Below, one piece after another: positions 17,393 to 55,730 of a stretch of DNA of 64,000 nt. The stretch is from an uncultured Actinomycetes bacterium (lineage in GTDB: Bacteria > Actinomycetota > UBA4738 > HRBIN12): positions 1,829,215 to 1,893,214 of the forward strand of contig CAVRAV010000001.1 in the NCBI GenBank assembly GCA_963719165.1, written 5' to 3'. Made by a program: the position numbers and the translations under genes. Position 1 is the first letter of the stretch, and every line of letters begins with the position of its first letter. Under the pieces are notes generated by a model. The model did no database searches, had not been told where the DNA came from, and was given only the letters and a program-made list of their open reading frames with translations.

Positions 17393-17400
17393 GGACAGCG

Positions 17401-29701: not shown

Positions 29702-29890
29702 CCCGCAACACCCGTCCGCTCGCCACGACCTTGGGGCAACAACGCTCGGACGCTACGCCGGGCCCCGCGAGGCTGTCAACGCGCTGAGCGCGCGTGCGTT
29801 GCGCCTGTCGCGCCCTGTCCGTTGACCACGGCCGGGCCGTCCCCGAGGCTTGCGGCATCGGAGCCTGAGGTGCTCCGCGCTGGGTCCGAC

Positions 29891-31099: not shown

Positions 31100-31246
31100 C
31101 TGCGCGCGTGGGAGATGCGCATTGACTGCGCGCGTGGGAGATGCGCATTGACTGCGCGCGTGGGAGATGCGCATTGACTGCGCGCGTGGGAGATGCGCAT
31201 TGACTGCGCGCGTGGGAGATGCGCATTGACTGCGCGCGTGGGAGAT
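31091..31246. repeat. Perfect tandem repeat, 6 x 26 bp (GCGCATTGACTGCGCGCGTGGGAGAT), at the soxB/soxD junction
   Basis: Read directly from the sequence. Each unit carries the soxB 3' end (gcg cat TGA) plus a GGGAGA Shine-Dalgarno and an ATG. A partial 'gcgc' follows the last unit. Confidence 0.95.
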
Positions 31247-31251
31247 GCGCC

Positions 31252-31533
31252 GTGCTCTTGATCCCTTGCCCCTACTGCGGGCCGCGCGAGGAGACCGAGT
31301 TCCACTACGGCGGGCAGGCGCACGTGGCCTACCCCGCGGATCCGGCCGCGCTCTCCGACGAGGAATGGGCCGACTTCCTGTTCATGCGCGAGAACCCGAT
31401 GGGCGCATGGTCCGAGCGATGGGTACACGAAGCTGGATGCCGGCGGTGGTTCAACGTGGTGCGTTCCACGGCGACGAACGAGATCCAGGCTGCCTACGCG
31501 ATCGGCGAGCCGCCGCCGAGAGGCGACGGGTGA
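31252..31533 (+). CDS. soxD: Sarcosine oxidase delta subunit
   Basis: GTG at 31252, 6 nt after the GGGAGA of the last repeat unit, gives MLLIPCPYCGPREETEFHYGG..., the SoxD Cys-rich N-terminus. An in-frame ATG at 31219 inside repeat unit 5/6 is an alternative start. Confidence 0.8.
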   Translation: MLLIPCPYCGPREETEFHYGGQAHVAYPADPAALSDEEWADFLFMRENPMGAWSERWVHEAGCRRWFNVVRSTATNEIQAAYAIGEPPPRGDG

Positions 31534-34220
31534 CATCCTCGCGCCGCTCCGAGGGCGGCTCGGGGATCGACCGCGGCGTGCCGTTGCGGTTCTCCTTCGA
31601 CGGGTCCACCCGCGAAGGCTACGCGGGCGACACGCTCGCGAGCGCTCTGCTTGCCAACGGCGTGGACGTCGTGTGCTCCTCGCCGATCCTCAACCGCCCG
31701 CGTGGCGTGTTCTCCGCAGGGGTCGAGGAGCCCTGCGCCTTCGTGGAGGTGAGCGCGCCGCGGCTCGAACCAATCGTGGCCGCCCCAGCCGTGGAGCTGG
31801 TCGATGGGCTGAGGGCTGCGGGCCGCCCCGGCGTGGGACGACTCCGGGAGGACGATGCCGGTGCCGCGCCGGCCGATCACCGGAACGTGCATGTGGAGAC
31901 CCTCGTGGTGGGCGCCGGCGTTACCGGCCTTCGCGCCGCGCGCGAGGCCGCGCGCTCCGGTGAGCGCGTGATGCTCGTGGACGAGCGCCACTGGCTCGGA
32001 GGCACGGCGCACAGCGCCGCCGACATCGACGGGGAGGCGGCGGCGGCCTGGGTACAGATCGTGGCCGCCGAGCTCGACGAGGCGCCTGGGGTGCGCGTCT
32101 TGCCGCGCGCCACCGCGCTCGGCGTGTACGACGCGGGCTACGTCGTCGTGGCGCAGAGGAGCCGGGGCGCGGAGCGCATCTGGCACGTGCGTGCCGGGCG
32201 CGTGGTCCTCGCCACCGGGGCCCACGAGCGCCCGATCGCCTTCGCCGACAACGATCGCCCCGGCGTCATGCTCGCATCCGCGGCCGTGCTCTACGCCGAC
32301 CGGTTCGGCGTGCTGCCCGGCGAGCGGGCCGTGGTCTTCACGACGAATCACGGCGGCCACGCGGCGGCCGAGGCCCTCGCCGAGGCCGGCGTCGAGATCG
32401 CGGCGATCCTGGACGCCGGCGAGGGCGGCCCCGCCACCGATCGCGCGCGCGACCGCGGTATCGAGGTGCGCACCCGCTGGGCCGTGGCCTCCACCGCGGG
32501 GGGCGACCGTGTCCGATCGGTCCTCGGGGTCGGGCCCGACGGGGTCGAGGAGGTGTTCGATGCGGACCTCGTCCTCGTGGCCGGTGGGTGGAACCCCGTC
32601 GTCCAGCTGTGGCGCGGCATCGGCGGCGGCGTTCGCTACGACGACGACCTCGCCTGCTTCCTCCCCGACGGCCCGGCACCGCCATGGCTCGAGATCGAGG
32701 GAGCCGCCGCGGGGGTCGGTCTGCCCGCCGTCACGCCGTACTGGTTCACGCCCGGGGCCGACCTCAGCCACCACTTCATCGATCTGCAGAGGGATTCGAC
32801 GGTCGCAGACGTGCTCGACGCGGTCGACATGAACCTGCGGTCGATCGAGCACGTGAAACGGGCGACCTATATCGGCACGGCCATCGATCAGGGACGCACG
32901 AGCGGCGTCCACACGGCCGCCATCGTGAACGAGGCCCTGGGCGCCGGCCCAGGCGCCCAGGGCCCTTCGAACAGCCGGCCGCCGTATACCCCGGTGCCGT
33001 TCGCGGCCCTCGCCGGCCGCGACCGTGGGAACCTGCTCGATCCCGTGCGCTCGACGCCGATCCACGCGTGGCACGTCGAGCACGGCGCCACCTTCGAGAA
33101 CGTCGGCCGATGGAAGCGCCCGCGCTTCTTCCCGGCGGGTCCCTCGGAGGCTCTGGATGCCGCGGTGGACCGGGAGTGCCTCGCCGTGCGGGGCTCCGTG
33201 GGCGTCCTGGACGCATCGACCCTGGGAAAGATCGAGTTGGCGGGTCCCGACGTGGGGACCTTCCTCGACCGGCTCTACACCAACCGGATGTCGAGCCTGG
33301 CGATCGGCGCGATCCGTTACGGCCTCATGCTGGGGATCGACGGCATGGTGATGGACGATGGCGTGGCCATGCGCCTCGCACGGGATCGCTACCTCCTCAG
33401 CACGACGACCGGCGGAGCGGCCCCGGTGATGAGCCACGTCGAGGAATGGCTGCAAACCGAGTGGCCGGACCTTCGTGTCTGGGCCACGAGCGTCACCGAG
33501 CAGTGGGCGACGGTGGCGGTGAACGGACCCCGCGCGCGCGATGTGCTGTCACGGCTCGGCACGGGGATCGCCCTCGACGCCGCGTCGTTCCCGTTCATGA
33601 GCTGGCGCGAGGGTGTCGTCGCTGGCATGCCGGCGCGGATCGCCCGCGTGAGCTTCAGCGGCGAGCTCGCCTACGAGATCTCCGTGCCGGGCTGGTACGG
33701 GCTCGCGATGTGGGAGGCCGTGATGGCCGCTGGGACCGCCTTCGGCATCACGCCCTACGGCACCGAGTCCATGCACGTGCTGCGCGCCGAGAAGGGGTTC
33801 CCGATCGTGGGCCAGGACACCGACGGCACGGTCACGCCCCACGACCTCGGCATGTCGTGGATCGTGAACGAGACCAAGGAGGACTTCATCGGCAAGCGAT
33901 CGCTCTCGCGCCCCGAGGCCAGACGCCTCGATCGCAAGCACCTCGTCGGACTCCTGCCCGTGGAGCCCGACGCCGTGCTGCCCGAAGGCGCCCAGATCGT
34001 GCTGCGCGACACCGGGACGATCCCCATGCCGATGGCGGGGCACGTGACCTCGTCCTACCGCAGCCCCGCGCTCGACCGCTCGATCGCGCTGGCGATGGTG
34101 GCGGGGGGTCGCGACCTGATCGGCACGACGGTGTTCGCCCCCCTCCCCGGGGCGACGATCCCCGCCGTCGTGACCGCTCCGATCTTCTTCGATCCCGAGG
34201 GAACGCGCCGTGACGGCTGA
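31530..34220 (+). CDS. soxA: Sarcosine oxidase alpha subunit
   Basis: The GTG overlaps the soxD stop (GTGA). The ORF is 896 aa. HVETLVVGAGVTGLRAAREAA marks NAD/FAD binding. The C-terminal GcvT-like domain has ...FSGELAYEISVP.... Confidence 0.9.
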   Translation: MTSSRRSEGGSGIDRGVPLRFSFDGSTREGYAGDTLASALLANGVDVVCSSPILNRPRGVFSAGVEEPCAFVEVSAPRLEPIVAAPAVELVDGLRAAGRPGVGRLREDDAGAAPADHRNVHVETLVVGAGVTGLRAAREAARSGERVMLVDERHWLGGTAHSAADIDGEAAAAWVQIVAAELDEAPGVRVLPRATALGVYDAGYVVVAQRSRGAERIWHVRAGRVVLATGAHERPIAFADNDRPGVMLASAAVLYADRFGVLPGERAVVFTTNHGGHAAAEALAEAGVEIAAILDAGEGGPATDRARDRGIEVRTRWAVASTAGGDRVRSVLGVGPDGVEEVFDADLVLVAGGWNPVVQLWRGIGGGVRYDDDLACFLPDGPAPPWLEIEGAAAGVGLPAVTPYWFTPGADLSHHFIDLQRDSTVADVLDAVDMNLRSIEHVKRATYIGTAIDQGRTSGVHTAAIVNEALGAGPGAQGPSNSRPPYTPVPFAALAGRDRGNLLDPVRSTPIHAWHVEHGATFENVGRWKRPRFFPAGPSEALDAAVDRECLAVRGSVGVLDASTLGKIELAGPDVGTFLDRLYTNRMSSLAIGAIRYGLMLGIDGMVMDDGVAMRLARDRYLLSTTTGGAAPVMSHVEEWLQTEWPDLRVWATSVTEQWATVAVNGPRARDVLSRLGTGIALDAASFPFMSWREGVVAGMPARIARVSFSGELAYEISVPGWYGLAMWEAVMAAGTAFGITPYGTESMHVLRAEKGFPIVGQDTDGTVTPHDLGMSWIVNETKEDFIGKRSLSRPEARRLDRKHLVGLLPVEPDAVLPEGAQIVLRDTGTIPMPMAGHVTSSYRSPALDRSIALAMVAGGRDLIGTTVFAPLPGATIPAVVTAPIFFDPEGTRRDG

Positions 34221-34770
34221 GCCGGTCGCGAGGTCTCCGCTCGCGCACCGGTCGCAGCACCTGAGGGCCATCGGGACCGTCGATCGATCCCTATGGGTTG
34301 CGGAGGTGCCGTTCCTCACGCAGGTCGGCCTTCGTGCCGAAGGCGTCCCGACCTCCGGTCTCGCCCTGCCCCTCGAGCCCGACACGGTCCGCATCGACGG
34401 CGAGCGTGCGACGCTGTGGCTGGGTCCCGACGAGTGGCTCGTCACCGGCCCGCCAGGCTCCGCGGGGGCCGTCATCGCGGATCTGCACGCCGGCCTCGGA
34501 GACCGGCCTCACGCCTGCATGGATCTATCGGCGAACCGCGCGGTGCTCGACCTCGGTGGCTCGGTCGCGTTCGAGGTCCTCGACCGCGGATGCTCACTCG
34601 ACCTGCACCCCTCGCGATGGTCCGAGGGCATGTGCGCCCAGACGAACCTCGCCCGGGCGCAGGTGATCCTGCAGCAGGGGCCGGAGGTCACGAGGATCTT
34701 CGTGCGGCCCTCGTTCGCGAGCTACCTCGTGGACTGGCTCGCGTCCGCCGCCGCGGCGGTCGGGGGCTGA
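34210..34770 (+). CDS. soxG: Sarcosine oxidase gamma subunit
   Basis: The GTG start overlaps the soxA stop. The ORF is 186 aa in the canonical soxBDAG order. Confidence 0.75.
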   Translation: MTAEPVARSPLAHRSQHLRAIGTVDRSLWVAEVPFLTQVGLRAEGVPTSGLALPLEPDTVRIDGERATLWLGPDEWLVTGPPGSAGAVIADLHAGLGDRPHACMDLSANRAVLDLGGSVAFEVLDRGCSLDLHPSRWSEGMCAQTNLARAQVILQQGPEVTRIFVRPSFASYLVDWLASAAAAVGG

Positions 34771-35358: not shown

Positions 35359-36246
35359 CTAGCCCAGATCCCGACCGAGCTCCGCGAGCATGCGCTCCTG
35401 CCACGCGACCGTGGCCTCAACCTGATTGAACGTGAACAGGTGCAGCGCGACGACGGCGGCGGTTGGATCGCACATCGAGGGCGCCATCCCCTCCAGCAGG
35501 GCGTCGGGGCCGAAGCTCCCGGGCGAGAGCAGCTTTCCCACCATCCGCCGGTTCTTCATGAGATAGCGCGCCGAGTCGGCCACCCCGATCTTGGCCGAGA
35601 CCGCCATAAGTTTCTTCAGATCGGCGACCCCGGGCGTGCCGAGGTTCACCGGGAGTTCAACCCCCGCCGCCCGCATGCGGGCGATCCAGGCCATGATGGC
35701 GTCGGGGTTGAAGCACATCTGGGTCGCCATGTAGGCGGCGTAGCGCTGCTTCTCCACCAACACCTCCACCAATCGGGCCTCGGAGATGTTCGGGTGACCT
35801 TCCGGATACGCCGGGACTCCGATCTCTGCGAAGGGATGGCCGGTCTCGTGGATGGCGCGAAGCAGCGACAGCCCGTCGGGGTAGGCGCCGGGATCCTTCG
35901 CGTCGCCCCCCACGACGAACGCTCGCTCGAGCCCCGAGCCTGCGCAGCGCTGGAGGAGGTCGGCGAGGTGGGCGGCGTCCCGAACCATGTGCGCGGACAG
36001 GTGCGGGATCGCCTCGTGGCCGTGATCACGCAATCGCTCGCAGAGGTCCAGCGTGGCCTCGAGCCCCCTGCCGGGCGAGGCGGTCACCGTCACCGTGGCC
36101 CGCGCGGGCAGGTGGGCGGCGTGCTCCATGGCGCTCGCGAGCGGGATCAACTCGAACTTGGGCTCGGCTACCAGGGCGCGCAGGGCCGATCGCTCAGGCG
36201 CCGAGAGCGCGTTCGACGGCTTGCGTTTGCCTAGCACCACGTTCAC
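35359..36246 (-). CDS. metF: Methylenetetrahydrofolate reductase
   Basis: GTG at 36246 after CAGGAGGACGA. FVVGGDAKDPGAYPDGLSLLRAI...ATQMCFNPDAIMAWI is MetF family. It is the last gene of the operon. Confidence 0.8.
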   Translation of the reverse strand: MNVVLGKRKPSNALSAPERSALRALVAEPKFELIPLASAMEHAAHLPARATVTVTASPGRGLEATLDLCERLRDHGHEAIPHLSAHMVRDAAHLADLLQRCAGSGLERAFVVGGDAKDPGAYPDGLSLLRAIHETGHPFAEIGVPAYPEGHPNISEARLVEVLVEKQRYAAYMATQMCFNPDAIMAWIARMRAAGVELPVNLGTPGVADLKKLMAVSAKIGVADSARYLMKNRRMVGKLLSPGSFGPDALLEGMAPSMCDPTAAVVALHLFTFNQVEATVAWQERMLAELGRDLG

Positions 36247-36272
36247 TCGTCCTCCTGCTCGCGGGCGGCAAC

Positions 36273-37814
36273 CTACACGTTCGAGTCCGGGAACGAGGCC
36301 TTCTGACGCTCGATCCACTCGCGCAGCTCCAGGTCGACGGCCTCGTCGATGGCCGGGGGTTCGTAGTCGGCGAGCGTCTTCTTCCATATCGGGTTGGCCC
36401 GGGTGGCGGACTCGAGCGCCCCCTCGAGCTCCCATTGTTCGAAGCTGTTGTTGTCGGCGACGGAGGAGCGGAAGAAGGCCGTCTCGAAGTTCGCGAGCGT
36501 GTGCGCGGTTCCCAGGAAATGCTGACCGGGACCGTTCTCCACGATGGCGTCCACCGCCTGGCCGTTCGGGCTCAGATCGACGCCCTTCGCGAACGCGTGC
36601 ATCATCCCGCACTGGTCGAGGTCCATCACGAACTTCTCGTACCCCATGGTGAGCCCCCCCTCGAGCCATCCGGCCGCATGCAGCACGAAGTTGACCCCGC
36701 CCAGCACGGTCGGCTGCAGCGTGTTGGCGGACTCGTACGCCGCCTGGGCATCCGGGACCTTGGAGGCGGTCAGGGAGCCGCCGCTGCGGAACGGAACGCC
36801 CAGACGGCGCGCGCATGCCGCGAGGGAGTAGAGCACGAGCGCCGGCTCGGGCGTGCCGAACGTCGGCGCGCCGGACTGCATGGACATCGAGGATGCGAAG
36901 GACCCGAACACGACCGGCGCGCCCGCCCGCACGAGCTGGACGTAGGTCATGCCCGCGAGCGCCTCGGCGAGCGTCTGCGCGGCCGCCCCCGCCACCGTGG
37001 CCGGGCTCATGGCTCCCGCCAGGATGAACGGCGTGATGATCACCGCCTGGTTCGCCTCCGCGTAGGCCTTGGCCGCTCCGAGCATGCTCGAGTCCCACAC
37101 GAGCGGCGAGTTCGCGTTGATGAGGCTGAGGAGGTACGTGCGCTCCTCCAGCGCGTCCTTCCCGAACAAGATGCGGGCCATCTCGACCGAGTCCTGCGCC
37201 CGCTGGGGGTGGGTCACGGACCCCATGAACGGCTTGTCCGAATAGCGCATGTGCGCGTAGACCATGTCGTAATGGCGCTTGTTCACGGGCAGGTCGACCG
37301 GTTCGCAGACGGTGCCGCCCGAGTGGTGCAGGAACGGCGAGCTGTACGCGAGCTTCACGAAGTTCCGGAAGTCCTCGATCGTCCCGTAGCGTCGGCCGCC
37401 GTCGAGGTCCCGCACGAACGGCGATCCGTAGGCCGGCGCGAACACGGTCGCGTCCCCGCCGATCTGCACGTCGTGCGCGGGGTTGCGGGCGTGCTGGACG
37501 AACACCGAGGGGGCGCTGGCTCGGATCACCTCCCGGCACATCCCCCGCGGGAACCGCACGCGCTCCCCTTCGACGCCGGCGCCCGCGGCTTTCAGCAACG
37601 CGAGGGCATCGGGGGCGCCCTTGAAGTCGATCCCGACCCGTTCCAAGATCGTTTCGGCGTTGTCCTCGATCACGCTCAATCCTTCTTCGGAAAGGACCTC
37701 GAAGGGCGCGAGCGTGCGCGTGATGTAGGGGACGGCCTCGACGGCGTGCGCCGCCCGCACGGCCGCCCGCCCCGCGCGCCCGCCGGTGCGCCGCGCTCTG
37801 GGAGCATCGCTCAT
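36273..37814 (-). CDS. MttB-superfamily methyltransferase without pyrrolysine (glycine betaine/quaternary amine:corrinoid methyltransferase, MtgB-like)
   Basis: ATG at 37814 after GAGAGGAG. The ATGA overlaps the upstream gene. The N-terminus RRTGGRAGRAAVRAAH is typical of MttB. The ORF is 513 aa with no in-frame TAG. Confidence 0.8.
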   Translation of the reverse strand: MSDAPRARRTGGRAGRAAVRAAHAVEAVPYITRTLAPFEVLSEEGLSVIEDNAETILERVGIDFKGAPDALALLKAAGAGVEGERVRFPRGMCREVIRASAPSVFVQHARNPAHDVQIGGDATVFAPAYGSPFVRDLDGGRRYGTIEDFRNFVKLAYSSPFLHHSGGTVCEPVDLPVNKRHYDMVYAHMRYSDKPFMGSVTHPQRAQDSVEMARILFGKDALEERTYLLSLINANSPLVWDSSMLGAAKAYAEANQAVIITPFILAGAMSPATVAGAAAQTLAEALAGMTYVQLVRAGAPVVFGSFASSMSMQSGAPTFGTPEPALVLYSLAACARRLGVPFRSGGSLTASKVPDAQAAYESANTLQPTVLGGVNFVLHAAGWLEGGLTMGYEKFVMDLDQCGMMHAFAKGVDLSPNGQAVDAIVENGPGQHFLGTAHTLANFETAFFRSSVADNNSFEQWELEGALESATRANPIWKKTLADYEPPAIDEAVDLELREWIERQKASFPDSNV

Positions 37815-39850
37815 GTGGGACTCCTCTCGATGGTGGGACCGGCGGTACGTGAACGCCGTCGGCGACGCATCCGGTCCTCCGACCCGGAACCGGATCCGGC
37901 GCGGCGGGCGGGTAGCCGTACGACTTCAGCGAGGCGCGGATAGGGGTCGGCGGCGTGGGGGATCCCCATCGCGCCGACGAAATGCTCCTGGAACCGCGGT
38001 TCCACCGCCGTCTCGACCTTCTCCACGCGACGCACCACGGTTTCGATCTCGTCGCGCGCGGCGCGGTTGAGCAGCGCGATCCGCGCGCCCGTGCCGGCGG
38101 CGTTTCCGGCGCTCGTGACTGATGCCGGGTCGCAGTCGGGCACGAGACCGAGCACCATGGCGTGCACGGGATCGATGTGCGCGCCGAACGCTCCGGCGAG
38201 CCGGATCCGATCGACGGCGTCGATCCCCAGGTGATCCATCAACAGCTTGCACCCGGCCCACAGCGCGGCCTTGGCGAGCTGGATAGCACGAACGTCCATC
38301 TGGCTGAGCCGGAGCGGCACCCGCCCTTCGCTCAGGACATAGGCGAACGTGCGTCGGTCGGAGACGATCCGCGGGGAGCGCTCCGCCAGCGCGCCGTCGA
38401 TCACGCCGTCCTCGGTGATGACCCCGGCGAGGAACAGCTCGGCCACGAGCTCGATGATCCCCGAGCCGCAGATGCCGGTGACGGCGCTCGGTTCGAAGCC
38501 CGGCTCGTCGGACCAAGCGTCGTTGCCGATGACCTTGTAGCGGGGCTCGAGCGTCGCTGCGTCGACGCGGACGCGTTCGACCGCACCGGGCGCCGCCCGC
38601 TGCCCGCCGGTGACCTGCGCGCCTTCGAAGGCGGGCCCGGTGGGGCTCGAGGCCGCGAGCAAGCGATCGCGGTTGCCGAGCACGATCTCCGCGTTCGTCC
38701 CGACATCCACGATGAGGTTGACCTGTTCCTGTGCGTGAGGCGCCTCGGACAGGATGACCCCCGCGGTATCGGCGCCCACGTGACCGGCGATGCAGGGCAA
38801 GAGGTAGACGCGAGCGCCGGGATTCACACCGCGCAGGTCAAGGTCGAGCGCGCGCCGGTGCACCGCGCCGTCGGTCGCGAGCGCGAACGGGGCCCCGCCC
38901 AGCTCCGTCGGGTCGAGCCCGAGGAGGAGGTGGTGCATGATCGGATTGCCTACCACCGTGAGATCCAGCACGTCGGAGGGCGCCTCGGCCGCCTGCGAGC
39001 ACAGTTCCCCGACGAGATCCTCGAGGCACCCGCGGATCGCGCGCGTGAGCTCGGCCTCGGACCCCGGATTCATCATCACGTAGGACACGCGGCTCATGAG
39101 GTCCTCGCCGAAGCGGATCTGCGGGTTCATCGAACCTGCCGATGCCAGGACGTCGCCGCTCGCGAGGTCGCACAGATGCCCGGCCACGGTGGTGGAACCG
39201 ACGTCGAAGGCGATCCCGAGCGCCCGGCCGTGGTACCCCGGCCACACGGCGACGATCGATCGACCGTCGTGCACGGCCACGGTGGCCGTCCAGTCGCCGG
39301 CGCGCAGCGTGCGCTGCAGCGCCGCGAGGACGTGGGCGTCGCACGCCAGCCCCGCGAGTCGCCAGTCGCGTTCGAGGGCCTCCTCCAGACGCTGGAGGTC
39401 GCCCGAGGGATCACGGAGGTCGGGTTCGCGCACCTCCACGTAGTGCAGGCGGATCGTGGGATCCACTTCGATCGGGTGGGCGTCCGCCTCCTTGCGGATC
39501 ACCTGGCGATGGATCTGGCTCTCCGGCGGCACGTCGATCACGAGGTCGCCCAGGATGCGTGCGTGGCACCCGAGCCGCCGATCGTGCCCCAGGCCATCGC
39601 GGTCCCGGTAGCGCTGCTCCGGCTCGCTGAACGCCGTGAGGTGCGCGGCTGTCGAATCGATGGCGAGCTTGGCGAACGCGCCCTCGCTCACCACCACCTG
39701 GCAACGACCGCAGATCCCCCGGCCCCCGCATACGGAGTCCAGGTCGACCCCGAGGGTGCGCGCCGCGTCGAGCAGGTCGGTGCCCTGGGCGAATCGCCCG
39801 CGCAATCCCGACGGGGTGAACACGACGAGCGGCTCGCGAGGAGGATTCAC
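37811..39850 (-). CDS. Reductive activase of corrinoid enzymes (RACo/RamA-like; ASKHA ATPase with an N-terminal plant-type 2Fe-2S ferredoxin)
   Basis: The GTG at 39850 overlaps the mtgA-like stop (GTGA). The ferredoxin cysteines are CGGRGICGRCQV. The body is ASKHA (AFDVGSTTVAGHL..., DVGTNAEIVLG). Confidence 0.8.
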   Translation of the reverse strand: MNPPREPLVVFTPSGLRGRFAQGTDLLDAARTLGVDLDSVCGGRGICGRCQVVVSEGAFAKLAIDSTAAHLTAFSEPEQRYRDRDGLGHDRRLGCHARILGDLVIDVPPESQIHRQVIRKEADAHPIEVDPTIRLHYVEVREPDLRDPSGDLQRLEEALERDWRLAGLACDAHVLAALQRTLRAGDWTATVAVHDGRSIVAVWPGYHGRALGIAFDVGSTTVAGHLCDLASGDVLASAGSMNPQIRFGEDLMSRVSYVMMNPGSEAELTRAIRGCLEDLVGELCSQAAEAPSDVLDLTVVGNPIMHHLLLGLDPTELGGAPFALATDGAVHRRALDLDLRGVNPGARVYLLPCIAGHVGADTAGVILSEAPHAQEQVNLIVDVGTNAEIVLGNRDRLLAASSPTGPAFEGAQVTGGQRAAPGAVERVRVDAATLEPRYKVIGNDAWSDEPGFEPSAVTGICGSGIIELVAELFLAGVITEDGVIDGALAERSPRIVSDRRTFAYVLSEGRVPLRLSQMDVRAIQLAKAALWAGCKLLMDHLGIDAVDRIRLAGAFGAHIDPVHAMVLGLVPDCDPASVTSAGNAAGTGARIALLNRAARDEIETVVRRVEKVETAVEPRFQEHFVGAMGIPHAADPYPRLAEVVRLPARRAGSGSGSEDRMRRRRRSRTAGPTIERSPT

Positions 39851-40785
39851 GGCGCGGGCGGCGCTTCCGCGCCGGCGGCCGCCGCCGCTCGCCTGCGACC
39901 CTCGCGGCCGCCTCTGCGCCCGGCGTTCGGGCCACCCGTGGGCTGCTCGCGATAGCGACCGATCCAGGCGCCGCAGTCCCTGTCCACGCCCATCAGCACG
40001 TCGGCCGCCATCACGGCCTGCCGGACCTCCTCGTGCAAGGGGCTGGTGATGGCGCTCGTGAGGCCGTTCGCGATGGCCATGGCGAGGAACGCGCCGTTGA
40101 TCCCGTTGCGGTTGGGCAGGCCGAACGACACGTTGGACGCCCCACACGTGGTGTTGACCCCCAGCTCGTCATGCAGCCGGCGGACCAAGGAGAACACCTG
40201 GCGCCCCGCGCCGCCTAAGGCCCCGATCGGCATCACCAGGGGATCCACGACGATGTCGGCCGGCCCGATGCCGTGATCCGCGGCCGCGCGCACGATCTTC
40301 TCGGCCACGGCGAAGCGCACGTCGGGGTCCTCGCTGATCCCGGTCTCGTCGTTCGTGATCGCCACGACCGCCGCCCCGTGCTTGGCCACCAGCGGCAGCA
40401 CCTGCTCGAGGCGCTCGTCCTCTCCGGTGACGGAGTTCACGAGCGGCTTGCCCACGTAGGCGTTCAGCCCGGACTCCAGCGCCGCCACGATGGACGAGTC
40501 GATCGACAGGGGGAGGTCGGTCAGCGACTGCACCAACCGGACGGTCGCGGACAAGATCGCGGGCTCGTCCGCCAGCGGGATCCCGGCGTTCACGTCGAGC
40601 ATGTGCGCGCCCGCGGCCACCTGCGCGTGCGTGTCGGCCACCACCGTGGAGTAGTCGCCGGCCTTCATCTCCTCCGCGAGACGCTGGCGGCCGGTGGGGT
40701 TGATGCGCTCTCCGATGATCACGAAGGGCCGACCCGGGCCGATCATCACCTCGCGGGTGGCCGAGCCCAACACGGTGTCGGTCAT
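39847..40785 (-). CDS. Methyl-tetrahydrofolate:corrinoid methyltransferase (pterin-binding, MtgA/AcsE/MtrH-like)
   Basis: ATG at 40785, with a GGAG SD. IIGERINPTGRQRLAEEMKAGDY...LDVNAGIP...NSVTGE...CGASNVSFGLPNR is the pterin-binding DHPS-like TIM barrel. Confidence 0.8.
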   Translation of the reverse strand: MTDTVLGSATREVMIGPGRPFVIIGERINPTGRQRLAEEMKAGDYSTVVADTHAQVAAGAHMLDVNAGIPLADEPAILSATVRLVQSLTDLPLSIDSSIVAALESGLNAYVGKPLVNSVTGEDERLEQVLPLVAKHGAAVVAITNDETGISEDPDVRFAVAEKIVRAAADHGIGPADIVVDPLVMPIGALGGAGRQVFSLVRRLHDELGVNTTCGASNVSFGLPNRNGINGAFLAMAIANGLTSAITSPLHEEVRQAVMAADVLMGVDRDCGAWIGRYREQPTGGPNAGRRGGREGRRRAAAAAGAEAPPAP

Positions 40786-41090
40786 ACCGGCGCTCCGCCT
40801 TCGATGCCGCCCGAGCGGATGGCGGCGCGAAGGACGTCTTCCGTCCAAGCCTCCTCCAGCGCCTCGGCGGCCGCCGACACCTCGGCATCGAGGTCGTCGC
40901 CGCACGCGCGCTTGTCCATACGCATCTGCTCGGTGTAGTCGTCCGACCCGATCAGGCCCGCCACCATCGCCGCGGCATCCACGGCCTCTTGGAACCGCTC
41001 CGGCAGGAGGGCGCGGGCACTCGTGCCCTCGCCGCGCGCCACGATCTGCATCGGGATGTCGCGCCAACGGATGACGGTCAGGTCGGCCAC
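40782..41090 (-). CDS. Small conserved hypothetical protein (102 aa) embedded in the corrinoid methyltransferase operon
   Basis: GTG at 41090 with a strong GAGAGGAG 5 nt upstream. The stop overlaps the mtgA-like start (ATGA). The product is VADLTVIRWRDIPMQIVARGEG.... It may be related to the small 'virulence factor' domain proteins seen next to MttB clusters. That is from memory, unverified. Confidence 0.55.
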   Translation of the reverse strand: MADLTVIRWRDIPMQIVARGEGTSARALLPERFQEAVDAAAMVAGLIGSDDYTEQMRMDKRACGDDLDAEVSAAAEALEEAWTEDVLRAAIRSGGIEGGAPV

Positions 41091-41109
41091 GGGGTCTCCT
41101 CTCGGTGGC

Positions 41110-41802
41110 TCAGGACGCCATCGCCCGTTTGGCGATCACGAGCGCTTGCGCGGTCTCGGCCGCCACGGCGGCGTCGCGACAGTAGGCATCGGCGCCCACG
41201 GCCTTGCCGAACTCTTCGTTCAACGGCGCTCCTCCGACGAGCACGATGTAGCGCTCGCGCATGCCCCGCGCCGCGAGCTCGTCGATCACGACCTTCATGT
41301 AAGGCATGGTGGTGGTGAGGAGCGCGCTCATCCCCAGGATGTCGGGTTCGTGCTCCTCCAGCGCGGCGAGGTAGTTCTCGACGGGGTTGTTGATGCCCAG
41401 GTCGATGACTTCGAACCCCGCCCCTTCCAGCATCATCGCCACGAGGTTCTTCCCGATGTCGTGGATGTCGCCCTTCACCGTCCCGATCACGACCTTGCCG
41501 ATCGGCTCTGCGCCGGTCTCGGCCAGCAGGGGACGCAGGATCGCCATACCGGACTTCATGGCGTTCGCCGCGAGGAGCACCTCGGGAACGAACAGGATCC
41601 CGTCGCGAAAATCGATGCCCACGATCCGCATGCCCTCGACCAGCGCGTCGTTCAACACGCGGTCGGCCGCCCACCCCCGGCCCAACAGGAGGTTCGTGCC
41701 CTCGACGATCTCCTCGGCGAGACCGTCGTAGAGGTCGTCGTGCATCTGGCTCACGAGCTCGTCGTCCGGCAGGGACGAGAGGTCGAGTTCCTGGTCGCTC
41801 AT
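41110..41802 (-). CDS. Cobalamin (B12)-binding corrinoid protein (MtgC/MttC-like)
   Basis: ATG at 41802 after AGGAG. The B12 lower-ligand motif DxHxxG is GDIHDIGKN, followed by the Rossmann-like B12-binding domain. Confidence 0.85.
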   Translation of the reverse strand: MSDQELDLSSLPDDELVSQMHDDLYDGLAEEIVEGTNLLLGRGWAADRVLNDALVEGMRIVGIDFRDGILFVPEVLLAANAMKSGMAILRPLLAETGAEPIGKVVIGTVKGDIHDIGKNLVAMMLEGAGFEVIDLGINNPVENYLAALEEHEPDILGMSALLTTTMPYMKVVIDELAARGMRERYIVLVGGAPLNEEFGKAVGADAYCRDAAVAAETAQALVIAKRAMAS

Positions 41803-41811
41803 GATCGGCTC

Positions 41812-44289
41812 CTATGCCTTGAGTCGTTCGCCCTTGGGGTCCCACAACGGTTCGTTGCCGACGGTCGCGGCGTGCCGCACGCCGAAGTACTCGACCTCCA
41901 CGGCGGTCCCGGCCACGGCCGCCTCGGCGGGGAGGTAGCCGTACGCGATGCCCCTGCCCACCGCGTAGCCGTAGGCCGCCGACGTCACGTAACCCGCGAC
42001 ACGCCCTTCGTGCCAGATCGGCTCGTAGCCCATCACCACGACGCGCGGGTCGTCGAGGGTGATGCACGACAGTCGCCGCGGGGGACCACCGGCATCGCGG
42101 ATCGCCTCGAGCGCGGCTCGCCCCTGGAACTCCTTGTCCCAGTGAACGGCGAAGCCGAGGCCCGCCTCCAGCGGATCGTGCTCGGTGTTGATGTCCTGGC
42201 CCCAGAGCCGGTATCCCTTCTCCAGGCGCAGGGAATCGAACGCACCGCTGCCGGCCGCCACCATGCCGTGCTCGATGCCCGCGCGCCAGAGCAGGTCCCA
42301 CACCCGGTCCCCCATCGCGAACTGGCCGTAGAGCTCCCATCCGAGTTCCCCGGCGTAGCTGATGCGCTGCGCCCACACGGGGCTCACCTCCCCGACGTTC
42401 AGGTACCGGGCGGTGAGGTACGGGAAGGCGTCGTTGGCAACGTCGGCGTCGGTCACCCGCTCGAGGATGTCTCGCGCCCGTGGTCCCCACAGCCCCAACG
42501 CGAACAGCGAGCCTGTGCGCTCGCTGATCGTGACCCGTTCGTCGGCGCGGATCTGCGACCGCAACCACGCGACGTCGTGCGGACCGCTACCGCCGCCGGT
42601 CACGAGGCGGAACAGCCGCTCGTCCTTGCGGATCACGGTGAGATCCAGCCGGATGCCGCCCTTCGGCGTGAGCGCGGCCGTGTAGACGATCGAACCCACC
42701 GGTCGATCGATGCGGTTGGCGAAGATCCGCTCCAGGTAGGAGAGCGCATCCGGGCCCGACACGTCGAACTTCGCGAACGGCGTGATGTCGAACAGCCCGG
42801 CGTGCGAGCGCGTGGCGAGATGCTCGGCGCCCACCTCGGGCGACCACCCGCGCGCCGCCCACCCCGACCGGCGAGCCCATTCATGAGCGACGCCGCCGAC
42901 GAGCGCCCGATTCTCGCGGAACCAGCGCGGGCGCTCCCAGCCGGCGCTCGTGAAGAACTCGGCGCCCAACCCCAGGTGCCGAGCGAAGAACGGCGTGAGC
43001 CGCAGGTCGCGTGGTCTCGCCGGCTGTTGCAGCGGGTGGATGATGTCGTACACCTCGCGGTACTGCTGCTTCCCCCGCTCCACGACGAAGGGCGCCGACG
43101 TCTGGAACGGGTAGAACCGGTTGGCGTCGGCCTCGGCGAGGTCGTAGGAGGGCTCGCCCTCGACCATCCACTCGGCGACCTGCCGCGCCATGCCGGCCGC
43201 GTGGGTCACCCAGACGGCCTCGCACACCCACACGCCGCGCGTGGACGCGCTCTCGCCCACCACGGAACCACCGTCAGGGGTGAAGCTGAACATCCCGTTC
43301 AGCGACCGGGCCGGATCGCTCGGGCGCATCGTGCCGCGCAACGCCGGGAACAGCCGTCCGGCCTCGGCCTCGCACACGTCGAAGTCGTCGGGGGTCCAGG
43401 GCATCAACGACGGCATCGCCCCCTCGCCTGTCCGCCGGATCTCCTCCTGCGGCGTGACGATGGGTTCGTGGCGATAGTTCCCCACACCGAAGTGGTCGCC
43501 GCGCTGGCGGAAGTACGAAGAGCCGTCCTGATGCCGCACCACGGGCTGCTGCATCCAGGTGTCCCCAACGAGCGCCTCGAGGCCGGGGACCGGATCCGTC
43601 CACACGAGCTGGTGCTGCACGGCCACGAGCGGGATCGGCACGCCGGCGAGGGCACCGACGGTAGGCCCCCAGAGCCCCGCGCAGATCAAGACGCGGTCGC
43701 ATTCGATCCGCCCCCGGTCGGTCTCGACGGCGCGCACGCGCCCGTCCCGCCGGTCGAAGCCCGTCACGCTCACGCCGCCCTCGAACGCCACTCCGCGAGA
43801 CTCCGCATCGCGCGCCAGCCGCGTCACGATCTGCACCGACTTGGCAGCGCCGTCGCTCGGGACCCAGAGCGCCGCCAGGATCGATCCCGGGTCGAGCAGC
43901 GGGCTCTTTTGAGCGGCCTCCTCGGGCTCCAGGAGCCCGGATCCATCGATCCCGTAGGAACGGGCGAACCCCTGTCTACGCTTGAGCTCTTCGACCCGCT
44001 CGGGCGTGGTCGCGACCTCGAGACTCCCCGTCCCGTACCAGCATCGCTCGCCGTCGAGGTCGATGTCCGCGTAGAGGCCCACCGAGTCGCCGGCGAGGCG
44101 GCACATCGTTCGCGACGGGTTGATCTGGAACACGATCCCCGGGGCGTGCGATGTCGAGCCGCCGGTCGCGAACAGCGGCCCCTGATCGATCACGAGGACG
44201 TCGCTCGCGCCGAGGTTCGCGAGGTGATAGGCGGCGCTCACGCCCACGATCCCGGCGCCGACGATCACGGTCTGGGCTCGGTCCCGCAT
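41812..44289 (-). CDS. Dimethylglycine/sarcosine dehydrogenase-family flavoenzyme (second copy), first gene of the corrinoid operon
   Basis: ATG at 44289 after GAGGAG. TVIVGAGIVGVSAAYHL marks the FAD site. The C-terminal GcvT domain has ...YAGELGWELY.... The ORF is 825 aa. Confidence 0.85.
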   Translation of the reverse strand: MRDRAQTVIVGAGIVGVSAAYHLANLGASDVLVIDQGPLFATGGSTSHAPGIVFQINPSRTMCRLAGDSVGLYADIDLDGERCWYGTGSLEVATTPERVEELKRRQGFARSYGIDGSGLLEPEEAAQKSPLLDPGSILAALWVPSDGAAKSVQIVTRLARDAESRGVAFEGGVSVTGFDRRDGRVRAVETDRGRIECDRVLICAGLWGPTVGALAGVPIPLVAVQHQLVWTDPVPGLEALVGDTWMQQPVVRHQDGSSYFRQRGDHFGVGNYRHEPIVTPQEEIRRTGEGAMPSLMPWTPDDFDVCEAEAGRLFPALRGTMRPSDPARSLNGMFSFTPDGGSVVGESASTRGVWVCEAVWVTHAAGMARQVAEWMVEGEPSYDLAEADANRFYPFQTSAPFVVERGKQQYREVYDIIHPLQQPARPRDLRLTPFFARHLGLGAEFFTSAGWERPRWFRENRALVGGVAHEWARRSGWAARGWSPEVGAEHLATRSHAGLFDITPFAKFDVSGPDALSYLERIFANRIDRPVGSIVYTAALTPKGGIRLDLTVIRKDERLFRLVTGGGSGPHDVAWLRSQIRADERVTISERTGSLFALGLWGPRARDILERVTDADVANDAFPYLTARYLNVGEVSPVWAQRISYAGELGWELYGQFAMGDRVWDLLWRAGIEHGMVAAGSGAFDSLRLEKGYRLWGQDINTEHDPLEAGLGFAVHWDKEFQGRAALEAIRDAGGPPRRLSCITLDDPRVVVMGYEPIWHEGRVAGYVTSAAYGYAVGRGIAYGYLPAEAAVAGTAVEVEYFGVRHAATVGNEPLWDPKGERLKA

Positions 44290-44395: not shown

Positions 44396-45844
44396 TCAGC
44401 CCAGGTTGAGCACCACCGTCTTCAGCTCGGTGAGCCGCTCCATCGAGAAGCGCCCGCCGACCCGGCCGACGCCGCTGCGAGAGCCCGCGCCCCCGCCGAA
44501 CGGCAGGTGCGGCTCCCAGTAGTTCGTGCCCTCGTTCACGTTCACCCACCCGGCGCGCACCGACTCCGCGTAACGCAGTCCACGCTGCAGGTCCGCCGTG
44601 AAGATCGCGGTGAGCAGGCCGTAGGGCGACGCGTTGACGAGCGCGATCGCCTCGTCCTCGTGGCGGATGGCCGTGATGGGCACCACGGGCCCGAACGTCT
44701 CCTCGCGTGCCACCTCCATCTCCTGCGTGACGCCTTCGAGGACGGTTGCCTCGAAGAACAGGTCGCTGCCGTGTTGGGGGGCTCGCTCGCCGCCCGCGAG
44801 CACGGTGGCGCCCCGGTCGAGGGCGTCCCGCACGTGACGTTGGGTCTTGTCCGCGGTGGCTTCGTTGTTCAGCGGCCCCATCGTCGTGGCGTCGTCGAAC
44901 GGATCGCCGAGATGGATCCGCTCCGCCACCGCCGCGACAAGCTTGCCCACGTATGCGTCCTTCACGTCCGCATGCACGAGGATGCGCTCCCCGGCGGTAC
45001 AGCTCTGTCCCGCGTTGAGGTAGGCCGCCACCAGCGTCGCATCGACCGCCGCGTCGAGGTCGGCGTCCTCCATGATCACGAGAGGGCCGTTGCCTCCCAT
45101 CTCGAGCAAGAGGTCCTTGCCGGCCGCGCGCGCGGCCACCGTCAGCCCGGTGGCGATCGAACCGATGAACCCGACCGCCTGCGTGCCGGGGTTCGCTGCG
45201 AGCTCGTCGCCCACCACCGGGCCGGCGCCCGTCACCATGTTCACCACCCCGGGCGGCACCTCGGCCGCCTCGAGACAGCGGATGAGCTCGACCGCGCAGA
45301 GGGACGTGCTGGGGGCGGGCGCCCACGCCACGGTGTTCCCGTACGCGATGGCCGGTGCGAGGATCTCCCCCGGCATCGTGTAGGGCCAGTTCCACGGGCT
45401 GATCACAGAGACGACGCCACGCGGGACCCGCTGCAGGAGCACACGTTTGGCGGGGTCCACGGACGGCGGCAGCACGCCCTCCATGCGCACCGCGTCGGCC
45501 GCAGCCATCTCGAAGTACGCGATCAGTTCCTCGACCTCGTCGCGCGCCTCGGCGGCCAACGGCTTCCCCTGGTCCGACGAGAGCACGCGCGCCATCGCCT
45601 CTCGGCGCTCGTCGATGGCCGCCGCCACACGCCGCAAGAGGGCCGCCCGGGCGAACGGGCCGGCGGCCGACCACGCGGGGAAGGCCACGCGCGCGGCCTC
45701 GATCGCCCGCCGGGCATCGCCGCGCGTCCCGGCCGCGACGGAGCCGATCACGGCGCCCGTTGACGGGCTCGTGGACTCGAACGTCGCGCCGTCCTCGGCC
45801 GGGCCCCAGGCGCCGCCGATGTACAGGCCGATCTCGTGCCCCAT
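44396..45844 (-). CDS. Aldehyde dehydrogenase (candidate betaine-aldehyde dehydrogenase)
   Basis: MGHEIGLYIGGAW...VISPWNWP...EMGGNGP...NAGQSCTAGERI shows the catalytic Cys and Glu motifs. Its position between the ProVWX-like genes and the GB operon suggests a BetB role. Confidence 0.75.
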   Translation of the reverse strand: MGHEIGLYIGGAWGPAEDGATFESTSPSTGAVIGSVAAGTRGDARRAIEAARVAFPAWSAAGPFARAALLRRVAAAIDERREAMARVLSSDQGKPLAAEARDEVEELIAYFEMAAADAVRMEGVLPPSVDPAKRVLLQRVPRGVVSVISPWNWPYTMPGEILAPAIAYGNTVAWAPAPSTSLCAVELIRCLEAAEVPPGVVNMVTGAGPVVGDELAANPGTQAVGFIGSIATGLTVAARAAGKDLLLEMGGNGPLVIMEDADLDAAVDATLVAAYLNAGQSCTAGERILVHADVKDAYVGKLVAAVAERIHLGDPFDDATTMGPLNNEATADKTQRHVRDALDRGATVLAGGERAPQHGSDLFFEATVLEGVTQEMEVAREETFGPVVPITAIRHEDEAIALVNASPYGLLTAIFTADLQRGLRYAESVRAGWVNVNEGTNYWEPHLPFGGGAGSRSGVGRVGGRFSMERLTELKTVVLNLG

Positions 45845-45920: not shown

Positions 45921-46934
45921 CTACGCCGGCTGCGCCGCCATCCCGGCGTCCACCCACGGCTGCCAGACCTGCGGGTTCTGGTCGATCCAGTCCTGAGCGG
46001 CCTTCGCTGGGTCATCCCCCTTGCTGATGCCCAGGCCGATGATGTTCTGGTCGTCGTTCGTGTAGGTCATCGCGCTCAAGAAGGCGAAGGCGGCCGGCGC
46101 CTTCGTCTGGAGATCCTGGTTGAAGGCCTTGTAGAGGTCGTCCTGCGGGTAGGCGCACGCGTACTTGGTGGCGTCATCCGCCGCCGCCTGCTCGCAGGCG
46201 GGCGTGACGTCGGGCAGCTTCATCATGGTCAGGTCGTACTTCTGCTGGGCCCAGTGGGGCGTCCAGAAGTACATCAGGATGGGGCCCTTCTTCTGGTACG
46301 CGGCGTCGAGGGCGGACAGCTCCGCGTCCTCCGAACCGCCGTACACGACCTTCATGTTGAGACCGAGGTTGTCGGCGATGGGCTGGTCGAAGGTCACGAA
46401 GCTCGGATCGCCGTCGAGGATCTGACCCTGGCCCGGCGTCTCGCTGGTCTGGAACAGGGTCTCGTTGCCCTTCAGGCCCTCCCAGGTCTTGAGCTCGGGA
46501 TGGGTGTCCAGCATGTAGGTCGGGAACCACCAGCCGATCTGACCGGTCACCCCGAGCAGTCCCCCGTCCACCACGCCGTTGCCGGATTCGATGTACTTCT
46601 TGTAGTCCTCCGCGTGCCCGGACGGCCACACCTCGAGGGTGGCGTCGATCTGCCCCTTCGCGATCGCGGGGAACTGCGCGTACTCGGAGATCTTCTTGCT
46701 GTCCACCGCGTAGCCGAGCTTGTCCTGCAGCAGCTGCTCCGCCACGGCGACGTTGGCGGCCGACCCGACCCACGGGTTGATCGCGAACGTGATCGTCGTA
46801 CCGGAGTTGTCGGGCGCGGAACTCCCCGACGCGCTCCCCGACGCGCTCGAGTTGTCTTTCACGTCGCTGCAGGCGCTCATGAGCAACACGATCGCCACCG
46901 CGAACGCACCGATCGCCCAACCTCGCTTGGTCAT
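45921..46934 (-). CDS. Glycine betaine/proline betaine ABC transporter substrate-binding lipoprotein (ProX/OpuAC-like)
   Basis: ATG at 46934 after GAGGAG. MTKRGWAIGAFAVAIVLLMSAC is a lipobox, followed by an OpuAC-family domain. Confidence 0.8.
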   Translation of the reverse strand: MTKRGWAIGAFAVAIVLLMSACSDVKDNSSASGSASGSSAPDNSGTTITFAINPWVGSAANVAVAEQLLQDKLGYAVDSKKISEYAQFPAIAKGQIDATLEVWPSGHAEDYKKYIESGNGVVDGGLLGVTGQIGWWFPTYMLDTHPELKTWEGLKGNETLFQTSETPGQGQILDGDPSFVTFDQPIADNLGLNMKVVYGGSEDAELSALDAAYQKKGPILMYFWTPHWAQQKYDLTMMKLPDVTPACEQAAADDATKYACAYPQDDLYKAFNQDLQTKAPAAFAFLSAMTYTNDDQNIIGLGISKGDDPAKAAQDWIDQNPQVWQPWVDAGMAAQPA

Positions 46935-46945
46935 CCCTGCTCCTC

Positions 46946-55661: not shown

Positions 55662-55730
55662 GGGCCTTCCCTTCTTCTCGTGCTCGGTGGACGTGAGGCC
55701 CGGATGCTAGCAACGACGCGGGTGGGGCGC

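Follow-up and report, generated by a model that had tools for sequence, protein, structure and literature searches.

A putative aerobic, cobalamin-dependent glycine betaine demethylation locus in an uncultured soil actinobacterium

Described routes of cobalamin-dependent betaine demethylation

An aerobic, cobalamin-dependent route of glycine betaine demethylation, comprising MtgBCD, MetF2 and RamA, has been described in marine bacteria (Mausz et al., PNAS 2025; PMC12478193). The aerobic MtgBCD genes are often co-located, or in operons, with genes for the later demethylation steps, and MtgC, MtgD, MetF2 and RamA have been studied by genetics and proteomics in aerobic R. pomeroyi (PMC12478193). 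In P. inhibens, mtgB1CD is induced by glycine betaine. An MtgBCDE cluster in S. meliloti is also cited by Mausz et al. (PMC12478193); the orthologue cluster that we located in this species encodes an ASKHA protein, a MeTHF:cobalamin methyltransferase, an MTHFR, a "virulence factor", a DUF1638 protein and a cobalamin-binding protein, with bmt 6 kb away. An anaerobic system, MtgB/MtgC/MtgA, is known from D. hafniense (2QNE, 9YCE; Picking et al., JBC 2026, PMC13080624). In addition, type 4 MTHFRs have been reported to be coupled to THF-dependent demethylases, with the CmuAB corrinoid system as a listed partner (Yu et al., Commun Biol 2025; PMC11868366).

The DNA analysed here, a 64-kb stretch (the window), derives from a soil actinobacterium of an uncultured lineage in the phylum Actinomycetota. 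An earlier note on this DNA took its arrangement of corrinoid and oxidative genes to be undescribed. Because the aerobic pathway with MtgBCD, MetF2 and RamA had already been reported from marine bacteria in 2025, the locus is better seen as a new example than as a new system. Judging from sequence comparison, we put at roughly 70% the probability that it represents the actinobacterial counterpart of the MtgBCD system, aerobic and cobalamin-dependent, wired into a complete betaine-to-glycine pathway. The corrinoid enzyme set most likely strips the first methyl group from the osmolyte glycine betaine.

Products of the seven genes

Seven tightly packed genes occupy positions 35359-44289 of the minus strand, in the order dmgo, mtgC, PF13769, mtgD, ramA/RACo, mtgB, metF. 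All seven ORFs are present at the positions given earlier, and a Pfam scan recovered the families that the earlier note had assigned to their products.

The mtgB gene (36273..37814, minus strand) encodes a pyrrolysine-free member of the MttB superfamily (PF06253, MTTB; 748 bits) in an uninterrupted ORF of 513 codons, with no internal stop and no pyrrolysine codon. MtgB scores 710 bits against S. meliloti 4YYC, 423 against D. hafniense MtgB (DhMtgB) and 97 against M. barkeri MttB (7XCL). It is 62% identical to 4YYC, 64% identical to the S. meliloti genomic copy (L085; tblastn) and 45% identical to DhMtgB over ~467 residues. A true trimethylamine MttB, the identity that the earlier note saw as incompatible with its reading, was considered and rejected, as the protein reaches 255 bits against a cut-off of 525 (TIGR02369), has no in-frame UAG and matches the M. 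barkeri enzyme at the low score given above. An Rfam match to PYLIS_3 falls within the mtgB ORF, which has no UAG.

Three of the four betaine-binding residues of DhMtgB are kept: Y129, R343 and H379 correspond to Y97, R312 and H348, each of which is experimentally required in the D. hafniense enzyme (PMC13080624). The fourth, F356, is replaced by G387, and W383, four residues earlier, may substitute for it. Glycine occupies this position in 86 of the 86 cassette-linked homologues recovered, as well as in 4YYC, and the full Y/R/H/W/G signature is identical in MtgB and the S. meliloti copy (4YYC, L085). We infer that MtgB is a glycine betaine:corrinoid methyltransferase.

The remaining components of a methyl transfer system are encoded alongside. 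The putative corrinoid protein MtgC (41110..41802, minus strand) combines the domains B12-binding_2 (PF02607) and B12-binding (PF02310), with a DxHxxG motif (DIHDIG, residues 112-117) and an SxL motif (SAL, at 159). Its best NCBIfam match is the glycine-betaine-specific corrinoid protein MtgC (NF047996), at 204 bits and below the cut-off of 370. MtgD (39847..40785, minus strand), a predicted methyl-THF:corrinoid methyltransferase, carries a Pterin_bind domain (PF00809) and passes the cut-off of NCBIfam PRK07535 (338 versus 259 bits). A RamA/RACo-type reductive activase (37811..39850, minus strand), with a 2Fe-2S domain and an ASKHA ATPase, matches Fer2, RACo_linker, Raco_middle and RACo_C_ter; it has four N-terminal cysteines (Cys41/47/50/95), and its best NCBIfam match, AcsV, is at 353 bits, below cut-off.

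The first gene, dmgo (41812..44289, minus strand), encodes a flavoenzyme with an FAD domain and a folate-binding GcvT-like domain (Pfam DAO, FAO_M, GCV_T and GCV_T_C; E-values 7e-77 and 4e-52). Its start, an ATG at 44289, agrees with the N-terminus of its homologue. Previously labelled a DMGDH, the protein is better matched by N,N-dimethylglycine oxidase of Arthrobacter globiformis (1PJ5), its best solved relative (728 bits, full length, residues 22-841), than by mammalian DMGDH (452 bits), and it appears to be of the dimethylglycine oxidase type.

The last gene, metF (35359..36246, minus strand; Pfam MTHFR, 50.7 bits), lies 26 nt downstream of mtgB. The best solved relative of its product is S6MTHFR of Sphingobium SYK-6 (7XG9), a "type 4", methyl-THF-oxidising enzyme, at 123 bits compared with 40 for the canonical type. 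Motifs specific to this type are L48/P49 in loop b2-a3, F215/C219 in helix a8 and P268/F269 in loop b8-a11. The hallmark residues are partly kept: E21, D107, Q175, P49 and F269 are present, and the protein departs at L48 (to S), R78 (to M), F215 (to V), C219 (to I) and P268 (to T). The homology favors the earlier proposal that MetF runs in reverse, and the enzyme is predicted to oxidise methyl-THF to methylene-THF.

The small protein of 102 amino acids encoded at 40782..41090 (minus strand) had been called unknown. It belongs to a named family with no assigned function, PF13769 ("Virulence_fact"; E 8e-15), which is also represented in the S. meliloti cluster. Its fold is predicted confidently; a search with the predicted fold found no relative in the PDB. 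PF13769 is a conserved member of the cassette from Actinomycetota to Alphaproteobacteria, a role for which we found no discussion in the literature. It is a tentative and rather doubtful candidate for a genuine, so far unrecognised, subunit of the corrinoid methyltransferase systems of aerobes; it might, for instance, serve the RACo-type activase or the corrinoid protein as a chaperone, redox partner or adaptor. DUF1638 has been reported as an accessory in the proteobacterial system. It had no tblastn match within the 64-kb window, and the nearest relatives (L001-L006 and L008-L010) lack it, but it is present in 46 other loci. Its loss from the cassette in this lineage, with retention of PF13769, would suggest some redundancy between the two accessories, or that betaine demethylation can proceed without DUF1638.

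Flanking genes, the proposed route and its alternatives

The cassette is surrounded by genes for betaine and choline metabolism. Upstream on the minus strand, an aldehyde dehydrogenase gene (44396..45844; Pfam Aldedh) holds the same position in relatives L001-L007. Its product, earlier named BetB, is generic, scoring 358 bits against the BADH model, and because this is far below the cut-off of 669 it stays a candidate betaine-aldehyde dehydrogenase. Next on this strand (45921..50163) are genes for a betaine/choline ABC importer consisting of ProV, a fused ChoW-ProW permease and an OpuAC protein (Pfam ABC_tran, two BPD_transp_1, OpuAC). These genes overlap at GTGA and ATGA, and the NCBIfam scores (proV 364 versus a cut-off of 327, ChoW 471 versus 363, ProW 455 versus 439) bear out the ProVWX-like importer recognized earlier. 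The same is true of choline dehydrogenase, betA (50091..51887, plus strand, divergent; GMC_oxred_N and GMC_oxred_C), at 830 bits against an equivalog cut-off of 732 (TIGR01810).

On the other side, convergent with metF, the plus-strand genes soxBDAG (29876..34770) encode heterotetrameric sarcosine oxidase, as previously proposed. All four subunit families are present together in the order B-D-A-G (Pfam DAO; SoxD; Fer2_4, SO_alpha_A3 and GCV_T; SoxG), and SoxB scores 612 bits against a cut-off of 529 (TIGR01373). Divergent from soxB is a gene for an IclR-family regulator (28907..29701, minus strand; HTH_IclR and IclR_C); by synteny, an IclR gene lies directly upstream of mtgC in most other lineages. 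The second DMGDH-family gene that had been noted in the flank of the operon is found at 14927-17392.

In the route that we propose, betaine would enter by the ProVWX/OpuA-type importer, or choline would be imported or oxidised by BetA and the aldehyde dehydrogenase. MtgB would take one N-methyl group from glycine betaine and place it on the corrinoid protein MtgC in its Co(I) state, MtgD would hand it to tetrahydrofolate, and the S6MTHFR-like MetF would convert the resulting methyl-THF to methylene-THF. Oxidised Co(II) would be returned to Co(I) by the RACo-type activase with ATP and a reductant, a repair that is probably often required in an aerobe. Dimethylglycine would then be oxidised by Dmgo and sarcosine by SoxBDAG, each loading a C1 unit onto folate. 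The hybrid scheme of the earlier note, corrinoid methyl transfer from betaine to THF followed by dimethylglycine and sarcosine oxidases, draws support in this form from sequence homology, from the residues of the active site and from a gene context that is conserved.

A less likely reading is that the same corrinoid machinery acts on another carboxylated quaternary amine (proline betaine, carnitine, gamma-butyrobetaine or another betaine) and that glycine betaine is demethylated elsewhere. Since MtyB and MtcB prefer different substrates at 53% identity, 45% identity to DhMtgB leaves specificity unfixed; furthermore, F356 is not conserved, and R312 and H348 are common to family members acting on other acidic quaternary amines. 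Y97, however, reported as non-conserved in MtcB, MtpB, MthB and MtyB, is kept, and the first gene of the operon is predicted to encode an oxidase for dimethylglycine, the product of betaine demethylation, with BetA, a betaine/choline importer and sarcosine oxidase in the flanks. The elsewhere might be a Rieske oxygenase related to CntA, GbcA and Stc2, encoded at 18678-20303, 15 kb from the operon, and P. inhibens does retain both B12-dependent and Rieske routes. This protein scores 158 bits for CntA and 112 for Stc2, but at 166 it is far under the GbcA cut-off of 670, and no reductase gene adjoins it.

Still less probable is a main role in methionine synthesis, in which MtgC, MtgD, MetF and the activase would make up a split, cobalamin-dependent synthase of the kind known in P. 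inhibens and R. pomeroyi, methylating homocysteine with methyl-THF as donor, and betaine demethylation would be secondary. Mutants of R. pomeroyi in mtgC and mtgD are methionine auxotrophs, and the modules there serve both functions; a dual role in methionine synthesis and betaine demethylation is conceivable here as well. Nevertheless, no homocysteine S-methyltransferase (MtgE/Bhmt, PF02574) was found among the scanned ORFs of the window, MetF is closer to the oxidising type, and the cassette sits among catabolic genes and, in all lineages examined, is tied to an MttB homologue.

Co-transcription of the seven genes as a single operon is suggested by their spacing. Three junctions are 4-nt overlaps, in line with the coupling noticed earlier (ATGA for PF13769/mtgD, GTGA for mtgD/ramA, ATGA for ramA/mtgB), and the others are gaps of 9, 19 and 26 nt, each with a GGAG-like motif ahead of the following gene. 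That the genes are merely adjacent, without a common transcript or functional coupling, is very improbable: there is a 104-nt gap upstream of dmgo, a consensus promoter and terminator scan gave no signal above background, and the cassette of most other lineages has no DMGDH-family gene next to it, but the overlaps and short gaps with ribosome-binding-like motifs, and an identical gene order in at least six related MAG loci, argue for one unit.

Distribution and comparison with known systems

Related MAGs keep the whole neighborhood. The colinear cassette occurs widely across Actinomycetota, Chloroflexota and Acidobacteriota; by synteny it is found in Gaiellales, Thermoleophilia, Acidimicrobiia, Chloroflexota and one acidobacterial MAG, and in none of 25 proteobacterial loci. 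The direct dimethylglycine oxidase fusion is limited to the nearest relatives, all but one of which have lost DUF1638. What is new here is modest: the spread of the colinear cassette, the lineage-limited fusion and the conserved PF13769 member. The locus extends aerobic B12-dependent betaine demethylation, on the reading preferred here, from marine Proteobacteria to uncultured soil Actinomycetes, and would mean that osmolyte turnover in soils draws on cobalamin. It draws attention to two accessory proteins, PF13769 and DUF1638, and the compact colinear arrangement of transport, choline oxidation, three predicted demethylations and folate C1 capture should be handy for heterologous reconstitution.

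Among aerobic betaine catabolic systems, that of Arthrobacter globiformis resembles the present one in its dimethylglycine oxidase, matched over its full length by Dmgo, and here too SoxBDAG adjoins. What sets the present locus apart is the union of the oxidase gene with a corrinoid methyltransferase cassette; in Arthrobacter, the dmg and sox clusters have folate C1 genes at their flanks and are not known to lie beside a corrinoid cassette.

The anaerobic MtgB of D. hafniense (PMC13080624) shares superfamily, fold and three site residues with the protein described here, and likewise has its cognate corrinoid protein and methyl-THF methyltransferase encoded alongside. It differs in having F356 where MtgB has glycine with a tryptophan four residues earlier, and it serves anaerobic methylotrophy, whereas here the oxidases are O2-dependent and oxidation would proceed via folate and the dimethylglycine and sarcosine oxidases. 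The idea that an MTHFR encoded beside a methyl-THF-making demethylase runs oxidatively is shared with type 4 MTHFRs (PMC11868366), although the partner here is an MttB-family system, not considered in that paper, and the hallmark residues are only in part retained.

The closest likeness is to the aerobic MtgBCD systems of R. pomeroyi, P. inhibens and S. meliloti (PMC12478193; Hammer et al., bioRxiv 2025). Shared are a non-pyrrolysine PF06253 MtgB (62-64% identical in S. meliloti, where PF13769 is also common to both clusters), MtgC, MtgD, a RamA/RACo activase and a dedicated MetF; a proposed logic in which the methyl group passes to THF and on to methylene-THF; and a link to betaine uptake, choline oxidation and dimethylglycine/sarcosine demethylation. 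S. meliloti and Paracoccus have a MetF plus MetV-like pair, whereas a single S6MTHFR-like gene is found here. The present locus also differs in the absence of DUF1638 from the window and of mtgE/bmt nearby, and in the dimethylglycine oxidase gene fused as the first of the series. Finally, the genes are dispersed or divergent in Proteobacteria, whereas in this member of the Actinomycetota they appear to form a single colinear operon.

Gene content of the operon and its flanks

The window has a GC content of about 70%, so raw ORF lists were noisy; ORFs were filtered by third-position GC. After this filter, minus-strand genes follow one another without a break from about 50163 to 35359. They include the seven genes named in the earlier note, all of which are present, with these Pfam matches: dmgo (41812-44289; DAO, FAO_M, GCV_T and GCV_T_C); mtgC, for a corrinoid protein (41110-41802; B12-binding_2 and B12-binding, with DIHDIG at residues 112-117 and SAL at 159); a PF13769 gene (40782-41090); mtgD (39847-40785; Pterin_bind); ramA, for a RACo-type activase (37811-39850; Fer2 and three RACo domains; four cysteines in the N-terminal part); mtgB, for the MttB homologue (36273-37814; PF06253 at 748 bits, with no internal stop); and metF (35359-36246; MTHFR). 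The coupled junctions are also as described, with three 4-nt overlaps (ATGA, GTGA and ATGA); the remaining gaps are 9, 19 and 26 nt, with a GGAG-like motif before each. Because a scan of the window for consensus promoters and terminators was uninformative in 70% GC DNA, spacing is the basis on which we infer that these genes are co-transcribed.

The flanking BetA, importer, sarcosine oxidase and second DMGDH-family genes likewise agree with the earlier description. BetA exceeds the equivalog cut-off of its NCBIfam model. The importer genes, identified by Pfam and NCBIfam as ProV, a fused ChoW/ProW double permease and OpuAC, belong to the same minus-strand run as the operon. The permease (46946-49018, minus strand) is a 690-aa fusion of two halves, of which the N-terminal one passes the ChoW model (choline) and the C-terminal one passes that of ProW. 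Pfam matches also place SoxB, SoxD, SoxA and SoxG genes convergent with metF, and an IclR regulator among the flanking genes. The aldehyde dehydrogenase adjoining the operon is generic (358 bits to the BADH model, against a cut-off of 669). A better candidate for betaine-aldehyde dehydrogenase, at 62703-63998 on the minus strand, is cut by the window end and scores 514 bits to the BADH model on the truncated sequence. Elsewhere in the window are a BetI-type TetR regulator (11228-12040, plus strand) and two ADP-forming acyl-CoA-synthetase-like genes (7394-9400 and 52732-55713, both minus strand) with CoA_binding_2, Succ_CoA_lig and ATP-grasp_5 domains.

The second DMGDH-family gene (14927-17392, Pfam) lies within 13985-21684, a possible second N-methyl or quaternary-amine catabolic island that also contains genes for an arginase-family protein, a beta-lactamase-fold protein, a Rieske oxygenase and a flavin amine oxidase. 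Its product is closer to mammalian DMGDH than to dimethylglycine oxidase. The reverse is true of dmgo, whose product matches Arthrobacter globiformis dimethylglycine (DMG) oxidase (1PJ5) over its full length at 728 bits, compared to 452 bits for mammalian DMGDH. A literature search for a link between corrinoid and dmg genes in Arthrobacter returned nothing relevant.

The MttB homologue and its substrate

The best solved relatives of the MttB homologue are a Sinorhizobium meliloti protein (4YYC; 710 bits, 62% identity) and Desulfitobacterium hafniense MtgB (DhMtgB; 423 bits, 45% identity). It was rejected as a true trimethylamine methyltransferase: the ORF has no in-frame UAG, scores 255 bits to TIGR02369 against a cut-off of 525, and matches the Methanosarcina barkeri enzyme (7XCL) at only 97 bits. 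The protein is thus free of pyrrolysine, as had been proposed. An Rfam PYLIS_3 match at 36674-36773 (minus strand; 43.3 bits, gathering threshold 38) falls inside this mttB-family ORF and, since the ORF is uninterrupted, probably reflects coding-sequence homology rather than a functional PYLIS element.

Mutagenesis and a betaine-bound structure identified Y97, R312, H348 and F356 of DhMtgB as binding glycine betaine; neither aromatic residue of this site is conserved in the carnitine, proline-betaine, butyrobetaine or phosphocholine enzymes (Picking et al., PMC13080624). Residues were mapped with the printed alignment, where subtracting 16 from the 2QNE index gives the residue number (checked on R, H and F). 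In the MttB homologue the first three are kept as Y129, R343 and H379, and the F356 position is occupied by G387, with a Trp four residues before it. This Y/R/H/W/G signature is shared by 4YYC and by all 86 homologues that were recovered in other genomes in linkage with the cassette, whereas paralogues of greater divergence in those loci lack it.

Substrate specificity is the main uncertainty in reading the system as one of betaine demethylation, because the F356 position differs and because MttB-family members at 53% identity can differ in the betaine they prefer. The Rieske oxygenase, 15 kb from the operon, bears on the same question, as its closest solved relative is the carnitine monooxygenase CntA (158 bits), followed by Stc2 and GbcA. 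However, it falls far under the GbcA cut-off (166 against 670 bits) and no reductase gene was found beside it; it was rejected as a GbcA equivalog.

Proposed fate of the methyl groups

Best matched among NCBIfam models by MtgC is the glycine-betaine-specific MtgC model (204 bits, under its cut-off of 370), and MtgD passes the model for methyl-THF:corrinoid methyltransferase (338 bits, cut-off 259). We propose, with a probability of roughly 0.7, that glycine betaine would lose its first methyl group by a B12-dependent reaction and would then be processed by DMG oxidase and sarcosine oxidase, so that all three methyl groups would be captured on folate. The cassette may have a dual role, serving in methionine synthesis as well as in betaine demethylation. 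That it is chiefly a split methionine synthase is unlikely, since no homocysteine methyltransferase domain was found among the scanned ORFs of the window.

The earlier note had MetF running in reverse. MetF resembles canonical MTHFR only weakly (40 bits), and its closest solved relative (7XG9, 123 bits) is S6MTHFR of Sphingobium SYK-6. This first member of the "type 4" class oxidises methyl-THF, and its gene adjoins THF-dependent demethylases (PMC11868366). The catalytic E, D and Q of S6MTHFR are kept, as are P49 and F269, but the hallmarks L48, R78, F215 and C219 are not. On this evidence, the reverse reaction is a reasonable though unproven prediction. In proteobacterial clusters, those of S. 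meliloti and a Paracoccus plasmid included (L085, 5440-7115; L086, 8298-10051), the MTHFR is encoded by two genes, one for a reductase and one for a "C-terminal domain-containing protein", in place of the single S6MTHFR-like gene of the actinobacterial cassette. The cassette has recruited MTHFRs of different types.

Distribution and relation to known systems

The genome collection searched does not contain the species itself, and the best MttB match in it is 85-86% identical. The closest relatives (81-86% identity) are from uncultured "Actinomycetes" MAGs, whose MFD isolate prefix makes them look like products of a soil survey. At 69-77% identity, relatives were found in Gaiellales, Thermoleophilia, Acidimicrobiia, Chloroflexota, one acidobacterial MAG and many Proteobacteria. 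When the window's proteins were mapped onto 84 loci, mtgC-PF13769-mtgD-ramA-mtgB was colinear in 29 of the 33 non-proteobacterial loci with enough upstream DNA, usually with metF after mtgB, but in none of the 25 proteobacterial loci, which have these genes in divergent or dispersed arrangements. PF13769 is a conserved member of the cassette across phyla; it has no solved structural relative, and the searchable literature does not mention it.

Most lineages have a DUF1638 gene between mtgC and the PF13769 gene and an IclR gene upstream of mtgC. Neither the 64-kb window nor its closest relatives have DUF1638. A DMG-oxidase gene lies directly upstream of mtgC only in the nearest relatives (L001-L010), a clade that keeps the full neighbourhood of OpuAC, aldehyde dehydrogenase, the seven genes, convergent SoxGADB, IclR and a PLP enzyme. 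One of these loci, L007, retains DUF1638 (6004-6618; compare 6043-6729 in L014) although the oxidase is already fused upstream, so the fusion preceded the loss of DUF1638. In the long-read MAG loci L001-L004 (3489-5981), DMG oxidase or SoxA is broken into two or three ORFs, probably through assembly frameshift errors rather than as real pseudogenes.

The functional part of the earlier interpretation is supported by these results; its claim that the arrangement was undescribed is not, since the window's system shares the gene set and scheme of the aerobic MtgBCD system of Mausz et al. (PNAS 2025, PMC12478193). Aerobic Ruegeria pomeroyi requires MtgC and MtgD for growth on betaine, and proteomics showed PF06253 proteins, MetF2, RamA and DUF1638 to be elevated on betaine, choline and carnitine. 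In their scheme, which is exactly that of the earlier note, the methyl group passes to the corrinoid and then to THF, and methyl-THF is oxidised by MetF2; about 5% of marine mtgC reads are actinobacterial (PMC12478193). In Phaeobacter inhibens, mtgBCD is co-expressed with the Rieske system GbcAB, and cobalt supply switches the route (Hammer et al., bioRxiv 2025). The S. meliloti locus, whose MttB orthologue is 64% identical to that of the window, matches the MtgBCDE cluster of Mausz et al.; it holds a cobalamin-binding protein, DUF1638, a "virulence factor" (PF13769), an MTHFR pair, a methyl-THF:cobalamin methyltransferase and an ASKHA activase, with bmt 6 kb away, and the Paracoccus plasmid carries the same gene set. 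The window's system therefore belongs to an already described kind, to which it makes an incremental addition: it comes from a soil actinobacterium, is fully colinear, begins with a fused DMG oxidase, has lost DUF1638 from the cassette and has an S6MTHFR-like MetF. The recognition of PF13769 as a conserved, unstudied cassette member across phyla is a further addition.
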